In this document: piece after piece, positions 1 through 62,681 of the stretch
Position numbering within the stretch: position 1 is the stretch's first letter
How the letters are laid out: each line of letters begins with the position of its first letter
Assembly: GCA_035638075.1 (NCBI GenBank)
Contig: DASRAU010000021.1
Location: 73,230-137,229, forward strand
Length of the DNA stretch: 64,000 nucleotides
DNA from: Verrucomicrobiia bacterium
GTDB lineage: Bacteria > Acidobacteriota > Polarisedimenticolia > Gp22-AA2
Reading direction: 5' to 3'
Position numbers and translations under genes: made by a program
The notes under the pieces: model-generated
Database searches by the model: none
Seen by the model: only the letters and a program-made list of their open reading frames with translations
What the model was told of the DNA's origin: nothing

Positions 1-1
1 G

Positions 2-1737
<1,736 letters not shown>

Positions 1738-1741
<4 letters not shown>

Positions 1742-2523
1742 TCCTTGCGGCCGCGGCGCGGCCGCTGGTCCTCGCGCACCGCGGCTCCCGCCGGCGCGCC
1801 CCCGAGAACACCCTTCCGGCTTTCGAGCTGGCGCTCGACGAGGGAGCCGACGGGATCGAATTCGACGTGCGGCTCAGCGCCGACGGCGTTCCGATCCTGC
1901 TGCACGACCCGACCCTCGATCGCACCACCAGCGGCCGCGGCCACGTCGCCGCTCAGACGCTCGACGCGCTGCGGCGGCTCGACGCCGGCACCTGGCTCGG
2001 TGCGTCGCATCGCGGCGCGCGCATCCCGACGCTCGGTGAGGCGCTCGACTTCTGCCAGGACCGCGCCGTCCTCAACATCGAGCTCAAGATCGACTCGGGA
2101 CGCGGCCTCGCCGCCCGCCGTCGCGCCATCGCCGAGGCCCCCCGCCTGGCCCAGGCCGTCGCCCGCGACCTCTCCCGCGCGCGCCGCCGCCCTCCCTCTC
2201 TCCTGATTTCGTCCTTCGAAGTCCGCGCCCTCGAAGCCGCCCGCGCCGTCCTCCCCGTCGCCGCGCTCGGCTGGCTCCGCTCCCGCACGATGCAGGGCCT
2301 GGCGAAGACGCACCGCCGTCTCCACCTCCGCGCCGTCAACCCCCACCTCCGCCTGTCGACCCCCCGCCGCCTCGCCTCCGCGAAGAAACTCGCCCTCGAG
2401 ATCTTCGTCTATCCCGTGAACGATCCCGCCGATCTCCTACGCCTGGCCTCATCCGGCGTCACCGCCGTCATCACCGACGACCCGCTCATCGCCATCGACA
2501 CCCTGAAACACCGAACCCCCTGA
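1738..2523 (+). CDS. Glycerophosphodiester phosphodiesterase (GDPD family)
   Basis: N-terminal HRG motif ([21 protein letters not shown]), [17 protein letters not shown], and the conserved C-terminal ITDDP. GTG start at 1738 overlaps the typA stop (GTGA). Confidence 0.8.
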
Positions 2524-2575
2524 TTCGCGCAACGCCCCCGCCCATGAAGTGACGACGAATCACGGGAGGCCACGG

Positions 2576-2630
2576 GCAGCGTGGCCGGACCCGTCCCCGG
2601 CGGGATCGATTCCTGTTCCCTCTGAGGCGG
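2576..2630. repeat. Copy 1 of a 55-nt conserved intergenic element (second copy at 62542-62596, 54/55 identical)
   Basis: Direct comparison of the two intergenic regions: gcagcgtggccggacccgtccccggcggg[a/g]tcgattcctgttccctctgaggcgg. Contains a GCCGG/CCGGC hairpin. Copy 1 is followed by a second hairpin (cctgttcc..ggaacagg). Confidence 0.6.
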
Positions 2631-2779
2631 TGGAACAGGAGATCGTTCTTGTCCGTGATCAGCGACCGCACACGCGGTACGAAAGATCCACCGTGACTTG
2701 ACGAATGTGCGGTGTTGTGATGAATTACCCCGCCGATCCCAACGACGTTCGGACGACACGAAACACAGGGGGTACGACT

Positions 2780-3067
2780 GTGGCCAAGAAGAAAGCGAAG
2801 CGCAAGGCGCCGAGACGCAGCAAGCCGGCCCGGAAGGCATCGTCCAAGAGGGCCAGCCCCCGTGCCAAGAGCACCAGGAAGGCCGCGAAGAAGACGGCTC
2901 CGCGGCACAAGTCGTCTGCGGCGCAAACCGCACCCAAAAAGGCGCCCGCGCGGCCGGCTTCGCCCAAGCCCGTGACGCCGATGCCGAGTTCGTCATTCGA
3001 GTCGGACCGTCCCTCCGGTGGCGGGGCGCCGACCTACGGCATGGGCTGGGATTCCGAGGAAGAGTAG
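2780..3067 (+). CDS. Small Lys/Arg/Ala/Pro-rich basic protein with acidic C-terminal tail (histone H1-like / AlgP-like)
   Basis: GTG start preceded by AGGGGG 8 nt upstream. The first ~70 aa are almost entirely K/R/A/P/S (AKKKAKRKAPRRSKPARKASSKRASPRAKSTRKAAKK) and the tail is GMGWDSEEE. Start chosen over the upstream ATG 2705, which lacks an RBS. Confidence 0.55.
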   Translation: MAKKKAKRKAPRRSKPARKASSKRASPRAKSTRKAAKKTAPRHKSSAAQTAPKKAPARPASPKPVTPMPSSSFESDRPSGGGAPTYGMGWDSEEE

Positions 3068-3228
3068 CCCGCCCGCACGCCGGGCGGCCGAAGTGATCGA
3101 GGGCCGTCTCCCGCCCGCAAAGAGGCGTGGGACGGCCCTTTTGCTGTCCACGGGTGGTTGACGCCCCTCCGTTCCCGCTTATATTGGGGCCATGTCGGAA
3201 ACGGACCGCCACCGTCGCGCGAGGGGAG

Positions 3229-3732
3229 ATGCCCGCTCTCGAACCACCCTCCAATCCCGAGGACGCCTTCAAGCGGGGGTTGGCTTGCCTCGAGCGCCGC
3301 TCGTACCAGGAGGCGGCCTCCTGTTTCCAGGCGTCGATCGACCTCGACCGTCCGAACCAGAAAACCTCCAACATGAAGTACCTGTCGTTCCTGGGGCTGG
3401 CGCTGAACCTCGCGCAGGTCCGCTCGGACGAGGGGCTCAAGATGTGCGAGCAGGCGGCGAAGCGGGAGTTCTTCGACCCCGACGTCTTCTGCAATCTCGG
3501 CATCGTGTACCTGCGGCACCGGCAGAGGGGCCCGGCCTTCGCCGCGTTCCATCGCGGCCTGGCGCTGCGGCCGAGACACCGGCGGATCCAGGAGGAGCTC
3601 GATCGCTACGACCGCCGCTCCGCCCCGGTCTTCTCGTTCCTCGCCCGCGAGCACACGCTGAACGTCCTGGGCGGCCGGCTGCGCAGCCGGTGGCGCGCCC
3701 TGCTTGGACGTCTCTCTCCCAACGAAGCCTGA
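3229..3732 (+). CDS. Small TPR-repeat protein
   Basis: TPR-like helices (AFKRGLACLERRSYQEAASCFQASIDLD; FCNLGIVYLRHRQRGPAFAAFHRGLAL). Start ambiguous between 3127 and 3229. Confidence 0.5.
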   Translation: MPALEPPSNPEDAFKRGLACLERRSYQEAASCFQASIDLDRPNQKTSNMKYLSFLGLALNLAQVRSDEGLKMCEQAAKREFFDPDVFCNLGIVYLRHRQRGPAFAAFHRGLALRPRHRRIQEELDRYDRRSAPVFSFLAREHTLNVLGGRLRSRWRALLGRLSPNEA

Positions 3733-5297
3733 GGGGACTCGTCGCCCTCCTGTCGATCGCCGCTCTCGGCGGCGGGCCGGCGTCCGTCCGGGCGCAGGCG
3801 GATGCGCCGCAGGATGAGACCCGCCGCCCGCGCGAGTTTCGACAGGTGGAGGGCTCATCGCTCCTGGCCCGGGGACTCCTGCTCGTGGATCGCTGGAGCG
3901 CCGCCGACCATGACGAGGCCCGCCGCCTCCTGCGCCGGGCGCTCAGGGCGGATCCCGGTCTCGCCGCGGCGCGCGCCGGGCTGGCCCGCTCCGACCTGTA
4001 CCTGTACGCCTCCGGCATCGACGAGCGCCAGGAACGGATCGACGAAGCCCTGGCGGAAACGGAGCGCGCCGTCGCCCTCGCCCCGGACGATCCGGCCATC
4101 CGATCGGTCAGGGCGCTCGCGCTGGCGGCGGCCGACCGCACCACCCCGGCGCTCGCCGAGGCGGAGAGAGCCGACGCCCTGGGGCCGGGCCGGGCGGACG
4201 GACCGCTGGCGCTGTGCATCGTGCAGCGGCTGCGGCGATCCCTCGACGCCTCGCTGACCGCCTGCCGGCGGGCGGCCGATGTCGCCCCCGACTCGCCGCG
4301 CGTCCTCATGGCGCTGGCGGAGACGCTGCGCGAGATCGGGGCTTACGACGGCGCCATGAATCTCTACGGCCAGGCCGCGGACCTCGAGCACGACTCGCCG
4401 CTGCCGCAGCTCGGGGGGGCGGCGACGCTGGCGCGCAGCGGCGCGAACACCATCGCGTCCCGCAGCTACCAGGGCATCCTCGATCACCACCCCGAGGTGA
4501 AGCTGCGCGCCCTCGAAGGAGCGGCGGGGAACCGTGTCGCCGCCGCCGATTACGAAACCGCGCTCGAGTACTACCAGCGGGCGGAGCTGCCGGAGAACGG
4601 CTCGCTCTGGACGCTCCTCAGCCTCTACGGCAAGGGCTACGCGCTCCTGAAGCTCGATCGCGGCGCCGAGGCGGAGTACTTCCTGAGCCTCGTCACGACG
4701 CGCGTCCCGGTCGATTACGACGGCCCGGCGCGCGGCCGCGAGGTCCTGTTCCTGTCCTACGACGGGCTCGTGGACTGGTACGCCGGGAGGAACCGCCCCG
4801 ACCGCGTCGAGGCGCTGCTGCGCGAGGCGGCGGCGCGGCCGCTGGCGCCGACGCGCATGGCCCGGCGGCTCGGCGACCTGCTGCACGAGCGCGGTCGCGA
4901 TGCCGAGGCGGCGGGTCTTCTCGAGCAGGCGATCCTCAGGACGGATCCCCTCGAGGACCGGCTGAGCCTGGTCGACTCGGCCGTGGCGCTGGCCCGCCTG
5001 CGCTCGTCGGAGGGCAGGAAATCGATTCCCGACAAATCCCCGGCCGGCAAGGCGCTCGACGCCGTGGCGGGGCTCCTGGATGCGAAGACACCGGCCGCCG
5101 CCTGCTATCGCATGGCGCGTGCCTACGGCCTGGCGCGCGACGCCGATTCGAGCCTGTCATTTCTCGGACGTTCGCGCGACGGCGGGTACCTTCCCGCTGA
5201 CCAGGTCGCGACCGACCCGGCGTTCGCATTCCTGCGCCAGCGCCCGGAATTCCAGCGCTTCCTCGGGAGCGACCCCGGAACCGACGTCCGCGACTGA
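3690..5297 (+). CDS. Secreted TPR-repeat protein with signal peptide
   Basis: GTG start gives the signal peptide MARPAWTSLSQRSLRGLVALLSIAALGGGPASVRAQA. Multiple TPR-like repeats follow through the C-terminus. Overlaps the upstream TPR gene by about 43 nt in another frame; no in-frame ATG is nearby, so the start is uncertain. Confidence 0.55.
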   Translation: MARPAWTSLSQRSLRGLVALLSIAALGGGPASVRAQADAPQDETRRPREFRQVEGSSLLARGLLLVDRWSAADHDEARRLLRRALRADPGLAAARAGLARSDLYLYASGIDERQERIDEALAETERAVALAPDDPAIRSVRALALAAADRTTPALAEAERADALGPGRADGPLALCIVQRLRRSLDASLTACRRAADVAPDSPRVLMALAETLREIGAYDGAMNLYGQAADLEHDSPLPQLGGAATLARSGANTIASRSYQGILDHHPEVKLRALEGAAGNRVAAADYETALEYYQRAELPENGSLWTLLSLYGKGYALLKLDRGAEAEYFLSLVTTRVPVDYDGPARGREVLFLSYDGLVDWYAGRNRPDRVEALLREAAARPLAPTRMARRLGDLLHERGRDAEAAGLLEQAILRTDPLEDRLSLVDSAVALARLRSSEGRKSIPDKSPAGKALDAVAGLLDAKTPAAACYRMARAYGLARDADSSLSFLGRSRDGGYLPADQVATDPAFAFLRQRPEFQRFLGSDPGTDVRD

Positions 5298-5539
5298 CAC
5301 CGCCTGTCGCGATCGCCCTTCCCTGTCGGCCGGCGGCGACAACGGCTGTCGGCGCGGCTTTCGTAACCTGTCCAGTCCCCGGACTCCGGGCCTTCCCGCG
5401 AACCCCGCGCCGGACGACGGTTGCGCGACTTGCGGCCGATGACGGAATCGTCCTTCAACCCCCTGACGTGGTACCGGGCTTGCTCTTCCGAGGGGCGCGG
5501 GCGGCGGCGGTTCGGGCCAGCCCCGGAGGTGAAGCGGCC

Positions 5540-6037
5540 ATGAAGAAGACGGTTCTCACGTTCGCGGGTGCAGCGTTCCTGGTGTCAGCCATGCTGGCGA
5601 CTCCGGCGCACGCCCAGGCGGTCAGGAACAAGTCCTGCACCGACGCCGCCACGGGCGTCACCTGGGACTGCGACTTCGCGTTGAAGAGCGCAACGCCCGG
5701 GACGCCGGTCAGCTTCTCAATCAATTACTCGTGCAAGAGCGACGTGTGCGGCCCGGTCCTTTCGTTCGGGCAGGGCGACCCCGGCTTCACGCCGGAGTAC
5801 GCGAGCGGCCACCTGGTGGGCGGCAGCCGTCTGCCCAACGGGCTCGAGCTGACGTTCGCCTTCGACTCCCTGAAGGAGTCGGGCGTCAGCGGCAACGCCC
5901 ACGCCGAGGCCCACTTCGTCATGAACGTCATGACGACGGACGCCTCGGGCGGGCCGGTGATGGTGGCCTGCCCCGTGGACGTGAAGCTGAGCGAGTTCGC
6001 GAACAAGAGCGAGGTCGCGGCCGCGAAGAAGAAGTAA
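5540..6037 (+). CDS. Small secreted Cys-containing hypothetical protein
   Basis: RBS GGAGGTGA upstream of ATG. Signal peptide MKKTVLTFAGAAFLVSAMLATPAHAQA. Lys-rich C-terminus. Confidence 0.55.
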   Translation: MKKTVLTFAGAAFLVSAMLATPAHAQAVRNKSCTDAATGVTWDCDFALKSATPGTPVSFSINYSCKSDVCGPVLSFGQGDPGFTPEYASGHLVGGSRLPNGLELTFAFDSLKESGVSGNAHAEAHFVMNVMTTDASGGPVMVACPVDVKLSEFANKSEVAAAKKK

Positions 6038-6067
6038 CGATCGCGCCTTTCGGGCGCTGAAAGACAA

Positions 6068-6128
6068 CGAGCCCGGTGCACGCAGGTCCGAAGGAATTCG
6101 GGCTGGTGCGCCGGGCTCGTGGCTTTTC
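6068..6128 (+). terminator. Putative intrinsic terminator (long imperfect hairpin, then UGGCUUUUCG)
   Basis: cgagcccggtgca ... tgcgccgggctcg forms a ~13-bp stem with one mismatch and a nested ccgaa/ttcgg hairpin in the loop, followed by ggcttttcg. It lies 30 nt after the stop of the 5540-6037 gene. Confidence 0.35.
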
Positions 6129-6173
6129 GTGCGGGCACCGGGGACCGATTGCGGCCGGCCCGGGCCTCTCAGT

Positions 6174-6965
6174 TCAGCGGGGCAGGACGACCTTGGCGTT
6201 CTGCTCCAGCGGAACCTGCAGGACGTCCTCGACCTTGATGCGGGCTTCGCGGCCCTTGGTCGTGCCGGCGACCGCGGTGCCGATCGCCGCGCCGACCGCA
6301 GCGCCGCCGCCGGTGCTCTTGCCGAGCGCCTTGCCGAGGAGGGCGCCGCCGACGGCGCTGCCGCCGATGATCGCGCCCTTCTTGGCCGCGCTGCCCTCCG
6401 CCGCCTTGGTGTAGCCGGCGGAGATGGCCGACTTGTGACCGCCCGGCGCCACGACGCTCGTGAACTGCAGCGACAGCGCGCCGCCGGTCTCCTTGAAACC
6501 CTTCGAGGCCGACTTCACGTCGCTGACGGTGCCGTGCACCTGGCTTCCCTCGGGGAACGCGACGCGATCGCCGACGGTGATCGACTGCTTCAGCGTGGCC
6601 ACCACCTGATCGCCGACCTGGGCGGTCTCGGAGGTGAGCTCGGCCGGAAACGCCAGCGCGAGCTGGGTGCCGGCCGGAACCGTCACCGTCACGGAATTCG
6701 GAACGGCCGGCGCCGGGGCGGCGGCATGGTGCTCCTCGGGGATGGCGCTCGTGTGCGAACGGCTTGGGGCGGGCGCCGCCGGAGGCGGAGCCACGGGTGC
6801 AGCCGCCTGCTCCTGGGCGGGCGGCGGCGGTGCCGGCTGCTCCGCGGGCGGCGGAGCCTGTTGAGCGGTCTGATCGGCCGGCGGCTGGGCGCTCTGACCA
6901 CATCCCACGACGCCACACAGCATCACGCACGCGATCAGCAAGGCGACAGGCGTGAATCGATTCAT
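6174..6965 (-). CDS. Lipoprotein with Pro/Ala/Gln-rich linker and C-terminal glycine-zipper domain
   Basis: Lipobox LIACVMLCGVVGC. A PPPAEQPAPPPPAQ low-complexity linker. C-terminal GAIIGGSAVGGALLGKALGKSTGGGAAVGAAIGTAVAG glycine zipper. Confidence 0.7.
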   Translation of the reverse strand: MNRFTPVALLIACVMLCGVVGCGQSAQPPADQTAQQAPPPAEQPAPPPPAQEQAAAPVAPPPAAPAPSRSHTSAIPEEHHAAAPAPAVPNSVTVTVPAGTQLALAFPAELTSETAQVGDQVVATLKQSITVGDRVAFPEGSQVHGTVSDVKSASKGFKETGGALSLQFTSVVAPGGHKSAISAGYTKAAEGSAAKKGAIIGGSAVGGALLGKALGKSTGGGAAVGAAIGTAVAGTTKGREARIKVEDVLQVPLEQNAKVVLPR

Positions 6966-7419
6966 GGAAAAAGTCCCTCCTCAATGAGTCCGACGGGCTC
7001 TATATAGCCGCTCGATCTCCGCCCGTCAAATCCTCTCTGCCTGCTTCGGTTTTCCGGATCTCCATCCAAGATCCGGTTGATTGGATGTCGTCAGCCTCTC
7101 TCGAAGCCCACGAATACCGGGATACACCCTACCGAAACATACGGATCGTGCGGTTTTTGCCTCATATCGTTGAGCCGATTTCGCTTGGCAATCAACTTGC
7201 TCTTGGCGGCCCCCGGGTGGGGCCGCATTCCGAATTCCCGCCCGCCTCAACACCTCAAAGATTCATCGCAAGTCGTCAGAAGTCGCAGGTCGCGCTCGAC
7301 CGCCTCGCCGGGTCACTCGTCCCCGGCGGACGCGGCCCCCGGTGGCCCGGGGACCCATCAGGGAGACGGGGGGCCTCATGCGTCTTTCTTTCAAACTAGT
7401 CTGGGGAGGAGCACCGGGA

Positions 7420-32648: not shown

Positions 32649-33904
32649 CGCTCCTCCGTGCGGGCGTCGCCGCCGAGGGCGCGGGTGAGCCGGGCCGCCT
32701 GCAGCGCGGCCTCGAGACGGGCGCGCAACGACTCCTCGCGCAGCGCCAGGACGGTGCGCCTGGCGTCGAGATAGTCGAGCAGGCCCGTCTCGCCCGCCTG
32801 GTACGCCTGGCGCGCCAGGTCGAGCATGGTCTCGGCGTCCTTCAGGAGATCCCCGGTGAGGAGCGTCTGCTGATCGCGCGCCGCCCGGAAGCGGTGCCAG
32901 GTCTCGGCGACGGTGCGCGTCGCCTGCAGCCGCTCCGCCTCCACGTCCGACTTCGCCGCGTCGCGCGCCGCCTCGGCCGCGGCGATGCCCCCCTGGTTGC
33001 GATCCCACAGCGGCAGGCGCACGGCGAGCCCGAGCCCCACGTACGACTGCCCTTCTTCGCGTCCCAGCGTCGGGCCCAGGGCGAACTCCGGGCGGCGCTC
33101 GGCGCGGGCGCGCTCGGCGCCATGGGCGGCCGCTTCCGCCCGGTGCGCCGCGGCGGCGAGGCGCGGCTCCGACGCGAGCGCTCTCGCCACGAGATCGTCG
33201 AGCGCCTCTTCCGCCGTGGTGTCCCCCGGCGGGGCGACGAAGCGGGCCGGAGCGTCAGCCGGACGACCGAGGAGCAGGTTCAAGGACGCCGTCTCGGCCC
33301 CGAGGTCGCCCCGCGCCCGGGCGGCCTGCGCCTCCGCCCGGCTGGACTCGATCGCCGCCCGGCGCGCCTCGAAGGGCGGCGCGTCGCCGGCCGCGACCCG
33401 CGCCTCCGCCCCCTGCCGCAGCTCCTGCGCCGCCTGCAGGTCCTCTTCCTTCACCCCGGCGATGGCCGCCGCGAAGGCGGCGCGCATCCAGGCGCTGCGA
33501 ATCTCCAGGAGGAGATCGCAGCGGACCTGCTCGCGCGTCCGCTCCGCCGCGGCGAGGCGCTCCTGAGCCTCGGCGCGCGCCGCGTCACGCAGCTTTCCCC
33601 ACGGCAGCGGCTGCCGCAGCGACAGGACCGTCTCCTTCGGCCCGTCGCCGTTGGTGAACCGGGTCCCGTCGAGGACCAGGTCGGGATTGGGATAGAGACC
33701 GACCTGCTCGAGGCGTCCCTGCGCCTCGCGCACCTGCGCCTCGGCGGCGAGAAGCGACGGGCTGGCCGCCTCCCCCAGCCGTTCCGCGTCGGCGAGGGTC
33801 AGCGGTGCGTCGGGCTCAGGGGCCGCGATCGCCGGCGAGGCGACGACGAGCGCGAGAAGGAAGGCAGCGGACCAGCCGGCCCCTGAAGGCCGGCTCCGGA
33901 TCAC
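32645..33904 (-). CDS. czcC: Outer-membrane efflux protein (TolC/CzcC family)
   Basis: GTG start gives the signal peptide MIRSRPSGAGWSAAFLLALVVASPAIA. Two OEP repeats with the characteristic Ala/Glu/Arg-rich coiled coils. Confidence 0.75.
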   Translation of the reverse strand: MIRSRPSGAGWSAAFLLALVVASPAIAAPEPDAPLTLADAERLGEAASPSLLAAEAQVREAQGRLEQVGLYPNPDLVLDGTRFTNGDGPKETVLSLRQPLPWGKLRDAARAEAQERLAAAERTREQVRCDLLLEIRSAWMRAAFAAAIAGVKEEDLQAAQELRQGAEARVAAGDAPPFEARRAAIESSRAEAQAARARGDLGAETASLNLLLGRPADAPARFVAPPGDTTAEEALDDLVARALASEPRLAAAAHRAEAAAHGAERARAERRPEFALGPTLGREEGQSYVGLGLAVRLPLWDRNQGGIAAAEAARDAAKSDVEAERLQATRTVAETWHRFRAARDQQTLLTGDLLKDAETMLDLARQAYQAGETGLLDYLDARRTVLALREESLRARLEAALQAARLTRALGGDARTEER

Positions 33905-51425: not shown

Positions 51426-52882
<1,457 letters not shown>

Positions 52883-55341: not shown

Positions 55342-60265
<4,924 letters not shown>

Positions 60266-60389
60266 AGAGCGCCCTCCGCGCGCCGAGAGGATGGGGAATC
60301 GAAGCGTTCACGATAGCACAGCCGCCGGAGGCGGCCGCGCGGCGCGGTGTCCCCTCCGCGCAGCACCGCACCGGCGCGGCTTCCCGTCG

Positions 60390-60419
60390 TTGACAGCCCA
60401 AAAAAGGACGTGCTAGCAT
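60390..60419 (+). promoter_or_regulatory. Sigma-70-like promoter (TTGACA - 18 nt - TAGCAT) upstream of the OmpA-family gene
   Basis: The -35 hexamer matches 6/6 and the -10 hexamer matches 4/6 with 18-nt spacing. It lies about 110 nt upstream of the start codon. Confidence 0.4.
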
Positions 60420-60527
60420 CCGCCGCTTTTTCGATGCCAGAGACGCCTTTACCTCCGCCGCCGACACGGGCCGTCGTCCCCGCCGGTCGGCGGCGTTCTG
60501 TTAGCCGCGAATCGAGGACTTCGGCGC

Positions 60528-62354
60528 ATGGTTCCTGACGCAACGCGATCGGGCAGCCGGATCGCACTCCGCGCACTCGCCCTGGCGTCGTCGTTCGTTT
60601 TCGCAGTCGCCGCCGCCTCGCCGCTGCACGCCGAAGAGCGCAAGCACTCCTGGGAAGTCGGCGGCTTCGGCGGCGCCACCATCTTCGGCCACGAGCTCGA
60701 GCTCAGCAACGAGTTCGACTACGGTCTGCGCGCGGGCTGGTACCTCGCGCCAACCTACGAGCTGGAGTTGCAGTACTACAAGACCGACTCCGCGACGATT
60801 CAGGGTGAGGACAGCACTCTGATCACCGACAAATCGGTGACCGCCGCCCACCCGGACCTCACCTGGGATGCCACCGCGTACACCCTCCGCTTCATCATCA
60901 ACCCGCGCAACGATCGCCGCCGCTTCAAGCCGTATGCGCAATTCGGCGCCGGCCAGATGAACTGGAGTCCCAGCCCGTCCCTGACCAAGGCGGAGACCGG
61001 GGACACCGACGCGTGGATCGTCTCCCTCGGCGCCGGTGCGCACTACCGCTTCGGCGCCTACACGCAGTTCCGCGTCGAGTTCGAGGACCTGTACGCGGTC
61101 GCCGAGGTCACCAACAACTTCCACCTCAACTTCGGGCTGTCCTGGGTCTTCGGCGGCGGCAAGCCGGCCGACAGCGATGGCGACGGGGTCCTCGATCTGA
61201 AGGACCGCTGCCCCGACACGCCGAAAGGCGCCCTCGTGGACAAGCACGACGGCTGCCCGTGGGACATTGACCGCGACGGGGTGATGGAAGGCGTGGACCA
61301 GTGCGCCGCCACCCCGGCGGGCTGGCCCGTGGACGATAAGGGCTGCCCGCTCGACTCCGACGGCGACGCGGTTCCGGACGGCCTCGACAAGTGCCCCGAC
61401 ACCGTCAAGGCGGCGGTCGTGGACGCCAACGGTTGCCCCGCCGACGCCGACAAGGACGGCATCTTTGACGGCCTGGATCGCTGCCCCGGCACGCCGCAGG
61501 GCGCCATCGTCGACCCGGCCGACAGCCCGACGGCGGGCTGCCCGCACGACGCCGACAACGACGGCATCTTCGACGGCCTCGACCAGTGCCCGCTCACCCC
61601 GGTCGGCGCCCTCGCCGACGAGAAGGGCTGCCCGAAGGACAGCGACGGTGACAAGGTCCTCGACGGGCTCGACCAGTGCCCCGACTCGGCCAAGGGATCG
61701 AAGATCGACAAGGAAGGCTGCCCGCGCGTGCGGCTCGACAAGACCGAGCCGCAGCTCGTCCCGAACGTCAAGTTCCACGGCATGGAGCTGTACCCGGGCA
61801 GCGACGCGTGGCTGCAGCTGCTCGTCGAGGCGGCGAACTACTGGAGCGACGTCGTCTTCGAGGTCGGCGTGTACACCGACAACGAGGGCGGCATCGCCGC
61901 GAACCGCGCCGCGGCCCAGCGCCGCGCCGAGGTCCTGCGCGCCTGGCTCGTCAACCAGGGCATCCCGGATCGCCGCTTCGTCGTCAAGGCCTACGGCCCG
62001 GTCAACTTCGTCGCCGACAACAGCACCGAGGAAGGCCGCGACAAGAACCGCCGCATCGAGGTCAAGCGCCTGTCCGGCGACGTCCGCAAGCATCCGAAGC
62101 CCGAGCCCGAGCCCGAGGCCCCGCCGCAGCCCCCGCCCGCCGCCGCCGAGCCACCGCCGTCGACGCCGCCCGCTGCGACTCCGCCCACGACTCCGCCCGC
62201 GGACACGCCGCCGCCTCCGCCTCCCTCCGGCGGCGACGCAAAGCCCCCTGCCGCGGATCCCGCCCCTGCTCCGGCCCCCGGCGGCGATGCTCCCGCCAAC
62301 CCTCCAGCGACGCCCCCGACCACCGACCCCGCCAAGCCCCCCTCCAGCCGCTAG
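60528..62354 (+). CDS. OmpA-family outer-membrane protein: N-terminal beta-barrel, seven thrombospondin type-3 (TSP3) Ca-binding repeats, OmpA/MotB peptidoglycan-binding domain, Pro-rich C-terminal tail
   Basis: Signal peptide. Beta-barrel strands with aromatic ends. Repeats D-x-D-x-D-G-x-x-D-x-x-D-x-CP (DSDGDGVLDLKDRCPDTPKG ...). OmpA box NRRIEVKRL. Tail PEPEPEAPPQPPPAAAEPPPSTPP. Confidence 0.8.
   Translation: MVPDATRSGSRIALRALALASSFVFAVAAASPLHAEERKHSWEVGGFGGATIFGHELELSNEFDYGLRAGWYLAPTYELELQYYKTDSATIQGEDSTLITDKSVTAAHPDLTWDATAYTLRFIINPRNDRRRFKPYAQFGAGQMNWSPSPSLTKAETGDTDAWIVSLGAGAHYRFGAYTQFRVEFEDLYAVAEVTNNFHLNFGLSWVFGGGKPADSDGDGVLDLKDRCPDTPKGALVDKHDGCPWDIDRDGVMEGVDQCAATPAGWPVDDKGCPLDSDGDAVPDGLDKCPDTVKAAVVDANGCPADADKDGIFDGLDRCPGTPQGAIVDPADSPTAGCPHDADNDGIFDGLDQCPLTPVGALADEKGCPKDSDGDKVLDGLDQCPDSAKGSKIDKEGCPRVRLDKTEPQLVPNVKFHGMELYPGSDAWLQLLVEAANYWSDVVFEVGVYTDNEGGIAANRAAAQRRAEVLRAWLVNQGIPDRRFVVKAYGPVNFVADNSTEEGRDKNRRIEVKRLSGDVRKHPKPEPEPEAPPQPPPAAAEPPPSTPPAATPPTTPPADTPPPPPPSGGDAKPPAADPAPAPAPGGDAPANPPATPPTTDPAKPPSSR
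61170..61730 (+). repeat. Intragenic tandem repeats encoding seven TSP3 motifs
   Basis: Recurrent gacggcgac...ggcctcgac...tgccccgacac units seen in the DNA and in the translation. Confidence 0.6.
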
Positions 62355-62541
62355 CAACGACTCTCTCGACCAACACTCGCTCCGATTGAACGCTCGGGAT
62401 ACGAGTGCGCCGATTCGTGACGCCGATAGTTGGCAATAGGGATGGTCGTGACGAGCACGGCCATGAATACGAGCGGCGGTTGGCGGGTGAGAGGGAACCG
62501 GAACGACCCACGGGGTCGTTCCATATCAGGGGAGGGCTCGC

Positions 62542-62596
62542 GCAGCGTGGCCGGACCCGTCCCCGGCGGGGTCGATTCCTGTTCCCTCTGAGGCGG
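62542..62596. repeat. Copy 2 of the 55-nt conserved intergenic element (see 2576-2630)
   Basis: 54/55 nt identical to copy 1, same orientation. It lies 86 nt upstream of the oligopeptidase B start. Confidence 0.6.
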
Positions 62597-62681
62597 CGGC
62601 TGAGGAGCGCTCTGGGCGCGGCCCGAAGGCTGGGCCGAGGATCGTAGTAGGATGCCGAATCCATACCTTGAGGAGAGAGCC

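Follow-up and report, generated by a model that had tools for sequence, protein, structure and literature searches.

Repeats of the bcr1, ERIC and BOX families are characterized by a non-conserved distribution, RNA-level compensatory changes, modularity and links to rearrangements (PMC3184786). bcr1, of about 155 bp, occurs in the Bacillus cereus group; it is intergenic, patchy between relatives and folded into several stems with compensatory changes, and its stability is lost over time (PMC3184786). ERIC (IRU), an imperfect intergenic palindrome of about 127 bp in Enterobacteriaceae, is patchy at orthologous sites and conserved between species; it often lies 3' of genes and, transcribed together with them, can change what becomes of the mRNA (PMC3184786). 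Correia (NEMIS) elements of Neisseria are MITE-like, 100–160 bp in length, with long terminal inverted repeats and co-transcribed hairpins (PMC3184786). REP/REPIN repeats with RAYT and TIR repeats with TIRYT are palindromic, intergenic and folded on one strand; an Acidobacteria-specific TIRYT group exists (PMC3733652). BOX of Streptococcus pneumoniae is modular, with a variable number of modules. Longer and shorter variants of ERIC, arising by internal insertions and deletions, are said to have been reported by Wilson and Sharp in 2006.

The window is the whole stretch of DNA analysed, 64 kb in length. Carries the 55-mer GCAGCGTGGCCGGACCCGTCCCCGGCGGGATCGATTCCTGTTCCCTCTGAGGCGG at 2576–2630 and 62542–62596, on the same strand, identical at 54 of 55 positions (sole mismatch A2605 against G62571). 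Chance expectation for such a match is none, and none occurs in dinucleotide-preserving shuffles (n = 100), so that the earlier note's report of two copies in one orientation is borne out. With a probability of about 0.72, the 55-mer belongs to a palindromic repeat, dispersed and non-coding, of the MITE/ERIC/bcr1-like kind, of which it forms the conserved 3' part and which is selfish or neutral DNA, not a local gene switch. The repeat is a new, lineage-restricted family of an already known sort of element; no such repeat was found catalogued for this metagenome-only class of Acidobacteria in a literature search. It adds a well-defined, covariation-supported repeat family for an Acidobacteria class known from metagenomes, and reveals no new regulatory mechanism.

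Resembles bcr1 in being non-coding and intergenic, in its patchy distribution, in a multi-stem fold with compensatory changes and in the loss of stability of its copies. Differs from bcr1 in the absence of any sequence relationship and in the host phylum; bcr1 has 5-bp flanking direct repeats and known transcription. Shares with ERIC the imperfect intergenic palindrome, the variant forms of differing length, the patchy occurrence at orthologous sites and the conservation between species, a likeness drawn by description; differs in larger size, two internal hairpins within the outer stem, GC-richness, host lineage and the absence of a visible TA duplication. Modular, with a variable number of modules, as in BOX, but modules are lost here by deletion and do not vary as tandem boxB units, and the two are unrelated in sequence. 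With Correia elements it shares long terminal inverted repeats and the occurrence of both full and internally deleted forms; the TA duplication, IHF and promoter features of Correia elements are not seen here.

Architecture and fold of the full element

The full element has a structured core of about 186 nt, or about 215–240 nt with its outer termini. An outer stem, P1 (about 30 bp), encloses two hairpins, P2 and P3, with a purine-rich linker ending in GGGGAGG between them. Measured against full-length copies, the 55-mer corresponds to the 3' strand of P3, the joiner and the right arm (3' strand of P1), and is thus a fragment of an element of about 186 nt, not a unit as first described. Three copies (L004, L008 and L013; L numbers denote related loci) have about 180–186 nt in common at 87–91% identity, with unrelated flanks (all-against-all BLAST); a fourth full-length copy is present in L016. 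The right arm pairs with the left arm, GAGAGGGAACAGGAACGACYTCGCCGGGG, in full-length copies. The GCCGG/CCGGC stem-loop that had been singled out within the 55-mer finds no support as the relevant structure: in full copies those bases pair with the left arm about 120 nt upstream.

The L008 element folds at −92.8 kcal/mol (z = −5.1); a short form in L011 makes a near-perfect hairpin of −67.7 kcal/mol (z = −6.1). RNAalifold on four sequences predicts 68 pairs, with compensatory change in 8. Of the cells in seven aligned copies, 93.7% pair. Pairs changed on both sides number 13, against 4.9 ± 1.6 in shuffles (0/500 reach 13) and 0–4 in slid-partner controls, in a test that comprises only seven sequences in an alignment fitted to the model. 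Compensatory changes are present in P1, P2 and P3. In L016 three P1 pairs co-vary (GAGAAAACGGGAA with TTCCCGTTTTCTC). The P3 stem is kept with differing sequences, GGTCTCG/CGAGACC, GGGCTCG/CGAGCCC and GGCCACG/CGTGGCC, and helix 6 (P3) has two pairs with changes on both sides. On the plus strand G.U cells number 35 and A.C cells 6; the consensus fold energy is −107 kcal/mol for the plus strand versus −90 kcal/mol for the minus strand. The G.U excess and the stronger plus-strand fold together indicate that folding of the plus strand is what is preserved. Preservation could be at the level of RNA or of single-stranded DNA. A transcript of the plus strand would fold into a long hairpin, with a possible effect on mRNA processing.

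Neither the unpaired GGGGAGG linker nor the right arm varies between copies. Species with no more than 84–91% identity in coding DNA have one and the same right arm; in part this is an ascertainment effect of searching with an exact 22-mer, and it may also reflect selection. A covariance model built from four full copies finds every known copy and, in 222 kb, no other convincing match.

The two copies in the window

Similarity of the two copies reaches past the 55-mer: positions 2559–2641 and 62525–62607 are identical at 74 of 83 sites (89%), and copy 2 has an additional upstream module, 62480–62509, that is part of the same element. The sequence outside the 55-mer, earlier described as unrelated, is therefore in part repeat. 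No further copy and no solo module beyond the two was found in the 64-kb window with nhmmer --max and the covariance model. A covariance-model match at 32697–32800 (E = 0.044) lies in coding DNA, is an ordinary GC-rich hairpin and was rejected as a copy. By Pfam, copy 1 is flanked by GDPD and by a Lys-rich 95-aa gene without Pfam assignment, and copy 2 by an OmpA-family porin and an S9 oligopeptidase. The positions of the parts, the anatomy of the full element and the contexts of the family are given in Table 1.

Table 1. Parts of the two window copies, of the full element and of its genomic settings.
Feature	Position in window	Strand	Description
Copy 1, 5'-truncated element	2559..2652	+	linker end ATCACGGGAGG, P3, right arm and right terminus remain
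P3 of copy 1	2568..2586	+	GGCCACG-GGCAG-CGTGGCC, perfect 7-bp stem
Right arm of copy 1 (3' strand of P1)	2595..2627	+	CCCCGGCGGGATCGATTCCTGTTCCCTCTGAGG; core of 55-mer
"Extra hairpin" of the earlier note, cctgttcc ... ggaacagg	2612..2639	+	right arm with right-terminal segment GGAACAGGAGATCGTTC
Left arm of copy 2 (5' strand of P1)	62480..62509	+	GGCGGGTGAGAGGGAACCGGAACGACCC; HMM positions 3–32 (nhmmer)
Filler of copy 2 in place of P2	62510..62533	+	partial right-arm-like GGGGTCGTTCC and junction ATATCAGGGGAGG
P3 of copy 2	62534..62552	+	GGGCTCG-CGCAG-CGTGGCC, 2 mismatched pairs
Right arm and right terminus of copy 2	62561..62606	+	CCCCGGCGGGGTCGATTCCTGTTCCCTCTGAGG and CGGCGGCTGAGGA
Switch interval	62551..62596	.	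base-by-base comparison with L001 and L011
Full element, left arm			GGCGGGTGAGAGGGAACAGGAACGACYTCGCCGGGG; 5' strand of P1
Full element, hairpin P2			lower stem, then CCCCTTCGCGCG, loop, GGCGCGAAGGG
Full element, purine linker			ends in GAGAGGGGAGG
Full element, hairpin P3			7–8 bp
Full element, joiner			CCGGACCCGT
Full element, right arm			CCCCGGCGGGGTCGATTCCTGTTCCCTCTGAGG; 3' strand of P1
Full element, tail			CGGYGRCTGAGG
Context 1			GDPD / Lys-rich gene
Context 2			OmpA / M16 peptidase
Context 3			DUF4136 / oligopeptidase B
Context 4			downstream of MutS (L004)
Context 5			adjoining Rieske gene (L013)
Context 6			adjoining large outer-membrane receptor-like gene (L012)
Context 7			downstream of cupredoxin gene (L007)
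Context 8			L005/L009/L010 site

Copy 1 matches HMM positions 109–183 only (nhmmer). Relative to the ortholog in L008, about 150 nt are deleted, comprising the left arm, P2 and most of the linker; the same site is full in L016. Its right-terminal segment resembles a left arm, and comparable right-terminal ...CGTTC(C) segments are present in L012, L013 and L009. Copy 2 is matched by the covariance model at 62480–62606 (89 bits, E about 1e-19), and blastn-short with a left-arm query also matches its left arm. The GGGGTCGTTCC part of its filler pairs locally with the left arm; the ATATCAGGGGAGG junction is common to copy 1. Its P3 is a hybrid, with the 5' arm of one subtype and the 3' arm of another, and the same hybrid is found in the independent contig L001. 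The 5' boundary ATCA(C/G)GGGAGG is private to the two window copies; other copies read GAGAGGGGAGG. The two window copies have no RNA fold in common; the fold of copy 2 is weaker than those of its own shuffles. The real fold is visible only in full-length relatives, since the window copies are without the parts for the consensus fold.

From the private boundary and the hybrid P3 we infer sequence exchange between copies in this genome. The element would have entered intergenic sites in an ancestor and been dispensable where present. Long palindromes usually shrink by internal deletion. Internal deletions would then whittle the element down, both window copies being such remnants. The near-identity of these copies, the private ATCA-GGGAGG boundary and the hybrid P3 would best be accounted for by ectopic recombination or gene conversion among copies; alternatively, near-identity might come from re-insertion of a truncated subtype.

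An open reading frame is intact in both window copies, with an SD-like GGGAGG, 11 nt, GTG and 14 codons to TGA (2582–2626, MAGPVPGGIDSCSL), and with a conservative Ile/Val as the single difference. That it is a small protein gene is next to impossible. L004 has GAG for GTG and a 1-nt insertion; L008, L012 and L016 also have GAG at the start, and L008 a further indel near the stop. The candidate is refuted by these homologs, without start codon and shifted in frame.

The window was searched for known RNAs. No match to Rfam was found in the window at gathering thresholds; at E up to 10 around copy 1 only chance-level matches occur, and at E up to 1 for five loci including full-length copies nothing meaningful. 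ARAGORN finds no tRNA or tmRNA in the window. A tRNA T-arm or att site is rejected as well: the GGTCGATTCC stretch is without a T-arm partner (by inspection), no tRNA is present, and housekeeping genes lie between the copies. With these genes, and flat GC between the copies, the earlier rejection of attL/attR holds.

Genomic contexts, orthologous sites and the synteny switch

A degenerate 30-mer search returned one GTDB genome contig, L004, from a Candidatus Polarisedimenticolia MAG (Acidobacteriota), and an exact 22-mer from the core returned nine JGI metagenome contigs. Exact-protein look-ups yielded near-identical contigs, and GDPD, oligopeptidase B and OmpA homologs yielded orthologous loci in progressively more distant relatives. 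L002 is 100% identical to window 1–7067, L003 99.1% identical to the window, and L001 identical to window 57528–62596. The repeat occurs in at least eight distinct intergenic contexts with unrelated flanks (all-against-all BLAST, ENA contigs included), two of its copies being in the window. As far as these sequences indicate, it is confined to one sub-lineage of uncultured soil Candidatus Polarisedimenticolia. No match to the element was found in phage, plasmid or viral contigs. The option of a REP-like repeat family, one of several offered at first, was essentially right in that a dispersed intergenic repeat is present at eight or more sites in related genomes.

Of the eight sites, four lie between convergent genes, one between co-directional and one between divergent genes; for the remaining two, L004 and L007, no downstream gene was recovered. 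An orientation bias relative to the upstream gene (5/6 upstream genes of known strand share the strand of the element) was considered and dropped, because convergent sites (4/8) are uninformative by symmetry. Both window copies lie upstream of plus-strand genes and have an ATCGAT-centred partial palindrome in the core, as might be expected of DNA bound by a transcription factor, sigma factor or nucleoid protein, or of a 5' leader regulating downstream genes. Such a role, also put forward in the earlier note, is highly improbable, since the element stands in co-directional, convergent and divergent regions and is lost or truncated at orthologous sites. The downstream gene is different or convergent in other copies, the Lys-rich gene keeps its own promoter-like box regardless of element presence, and the oligopeptidase B gene is without the element in L020 and L021. 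No promoter-like or intrinsic-terminator signal (GC-rich stem with U tract) was found at either window copy or at full-length copies.

Presence and absence differ between close relatives at three orthologous sites. At the GDPD/Lys-rich site L008 and L016 have the full element, and the window and L003 a truncated one; L014/L015, nested in the clade by BipA identity, are without it, as are the outgroups L017 and L019. At the OpdB site it is present in L011, reduced to its two termini in L020 (protein 95% identical), and wholly missing in L021. At the OmpA/M16 site the form in L001 is intermediate; in L025 nothing but GGGTGAGAGGG|GGTGACTGAGG remains, as left by deletion of the hairpin between short GAGG repeats; in L026 a left arm and a right terminus are present without the 55-mer. 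Intact copies are not retained across relatives at any of the three sites followed. An old gain with later losses is the best reading of these differences; gain followed by erosion is as expected for an unstable palindrome without local function. The earlier note had looked to further copies and to close relatives for a decision on function; further copies are found, and in close relatives the element is absent or decayed.

The covariation in all helices, including internal P2 and P3, the preponderance of G.U over A.C pairs with the better plus-strand energy, the invariant linker and right arm, and the position of several copies just 3' of a gene on the same strand could also reflect a functional structured RNA with its fold under selection and the 55-mer as its conserved 3' strand: a stabiliser or processing element of the 3' UTR, a small RNA present in many copies or a guide-like RNA belonging to a mobile system. 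This reading is unlikely. Erosion at every orthologous site argues against it, none of the three retaining intact copies and close relatives showing scars or nothing. Both window copies are without the parts needed for the consensus fold and have no fold in common, the element has neither promoter-like nor terminator-like signal nor any Rfam family match even at E = 1–10, and its orientation relative to genes is uninformative at convergent sites. Covariation of this kind is described for mobile repeats such as bcr1 (PMC3184786).

A box, GTGACTTGACGAATGTGCGGTGTTGTGATGAATTACC, lies upstream of the Lys-rich 95-aa gene (window 2693–2732, plus strand). It is kept in every relative examined, with or without the repeat element, and is probably the promoter of that gene; a simple sigma-70 scan did not call it. 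In L008 the element of the GDPD site is nested in a locus-specific inverted repeat, CTCGTTCGCACCACGCGCGCGAAGGTGTGAC / GTGACACCAATCGCGCGCGCGGTGCGAAAGA (L008 2536–2566 / 2787–2817). The flank duplex has an energy of −66.5 kcal/mol, and a remnant of its right half is seen in the window at about 2656–2688. As a part of the family this outer inverted repeat was rejected, being locus-specific and found nowhere else in fetched DNA. The nesting suggests either that the element inserted into a palindrome already in place or that the palindrome grew outwards.

A break of synteny lies inside copy 2. The window equals L001 base for base up to 62596, where L001 runs on into a convergent M16 peptidase gene; from 62551 onward the window equals L011 save one downstream mismatch, and in L011 a divergent DUF4136 gene precedes. 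The order OmpA|M16 is found in 3/3 relatives checked (L001, L025, L026) and DUF4136|OpdB in 4/4 checkable relatives (L011, L020, L021/L022). OmpA is adjacent to oligopeptidase B in the window only, and the switch falls within 46 nt common to both elements. It would represent either a real recombination (deletion between two direct copies) or a chimeric assembly join. To the left of the switch the window is 100% identical to ERZ27256645 contigs, and ERZ27256645 holds the OmpA|M16 junction. On that ground a chimeric join is judged more likely than a real deletion between direct copies, by roughly 2:1. The gene distances given earlier are right within 1 nt, save that "86 nt before oligopeptidase B" is suspect, since the switch lies inside copy 2.

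The OmpA-oligopeptidase B adjacency in this 64-kb sequence is not to be trusted. The repeat is a point of contig mis-joining or of real rearrangement in MAGs of this lineage, and in practice it matters as a hotspot of recombination or mis-assembly. The covariance model could flag such junctions and serve for a census of the family. Window 1–7067 is 100% identical to the ERZ27256645 contig k141_4398491 (98,106 nt), from its position 73,500. This contig would end at about window 24,600, and the OmpA-bearing contig starts at about window 53,021; by these limits the window would belong to another assembly, of greater contiguity, made from a near-identical population.

Mobility and class membership

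The element is short and non-coding, about 186–240 nt, and indels between copies break every reading frame. Terminal inverted repeats are present: arms of about 30 nt pair, and both arms changed together in L016. The flanks of six two-armed copies and two scar sites carry a family-wide GGCGG-TGAG direct repeat and no locus-specific duplication. As the ends of the element carry this repeat, the "scars" of L020 and L025 need not be empty sites and could have arisen by deletion. About 270 kb of fetched sequence yielded neither a transposase nor a parent element with the same ends; a candidate mobilising gene would be bounded by GGCGGGTGAGAGGGAACAGGAACGAC ... GTCGATTCCTGTTCCCTCTGAGGCGG. The repeat would presumably be moved by a transposase acting in trans. 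By its properties it is MITE-like, and a putative MITE in the strict sense. A simple MITE model of the DDE type does not require one-strand folding; the compensatory changes of P2 and P3 and the G.U excess show that one-strand folding matters, and count against it.

The element might be a mobile, strand-specifically folded nucleic acid with an activity of its own, either as an RNA of about 190 nt, with invariant GGGGAGG joiner and 3' strand, that guides a dedicated protein or is processed by it, or as the single-stranded DNA substrate of a Polarisedimenticolia-specific HUH-type transposase, with the 55-mer as the recognition strand; this is quite unlikely. Decidedly unlikely is a REPIN/RAYT-like or TIRYT-like origin, in which an HUH/Y1 transposase recognises one-strand hairpins and moves the element as single-stranded DNA. 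This would explain the strand-asymmetric folding signal and the compensatory change in internal hairpins, and a group of RAYT-like transposases peculiar to Acidobacteria, with long inverted repeats on either side, is described together with a Koribacter versatilis repeat family (PMC3733652). The present element is palindromic, intergenic and folded on one strand like REP/REPIN-RAYT and TIR-TIRYT repeats, but no Y1 or other associated transposase gene is seen in any fetched locus and the GGGGWSAS motif known for TIRYT inverted repeats is matched at 7/8 positions only (GGGGTCGA, GGGGACGG; by eye). The unit, at about 186 nt, is far longer than a REP or REPIN palindrome of 20–40 nt tagged GTAG or CGTC. 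Neither tag is conserved; the left-boundary tetranucleotide varies by copy (GTAG, GTTG, GTCG, GTTC).

Three further features of the window were recorded. A near-perfect hairpin of about 22 bp followed by TTTT, AAAGACAACGAGCCCGGTGCACGCAGGTCCGAAGGAATTCGGGCTGGTGCGCCGGGCTCGTGGCTTTTCG, lies in a convergent intergenic region at about 6060–6135 (plus strand). The hairpin is also present in L014 (8715–8840), L016 (6780–6930), L017 (14140–14310) and L019 (6645–6805), with stem and loop essentially identical in relatives whose GDPD coding DNA is about 76–88% identical to the window. Conserved far beyond the need of a plain terminator, it is a candidate 3'-UTR or small-RNA element, and may be either. Positions 51884–52411 and 55744–56271 are minus-strand paralogs about 3.9 kb apart, with blocks of 70–85% identity; by comparison with L026 they are identified as sigma-54-dependent response regulators, a case of ordinary paralogy. 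Internal direct repeats are present at 61251–61695 (plus strand) in the OmpA-family gene, which bears thrombospondin type 3 repeats.
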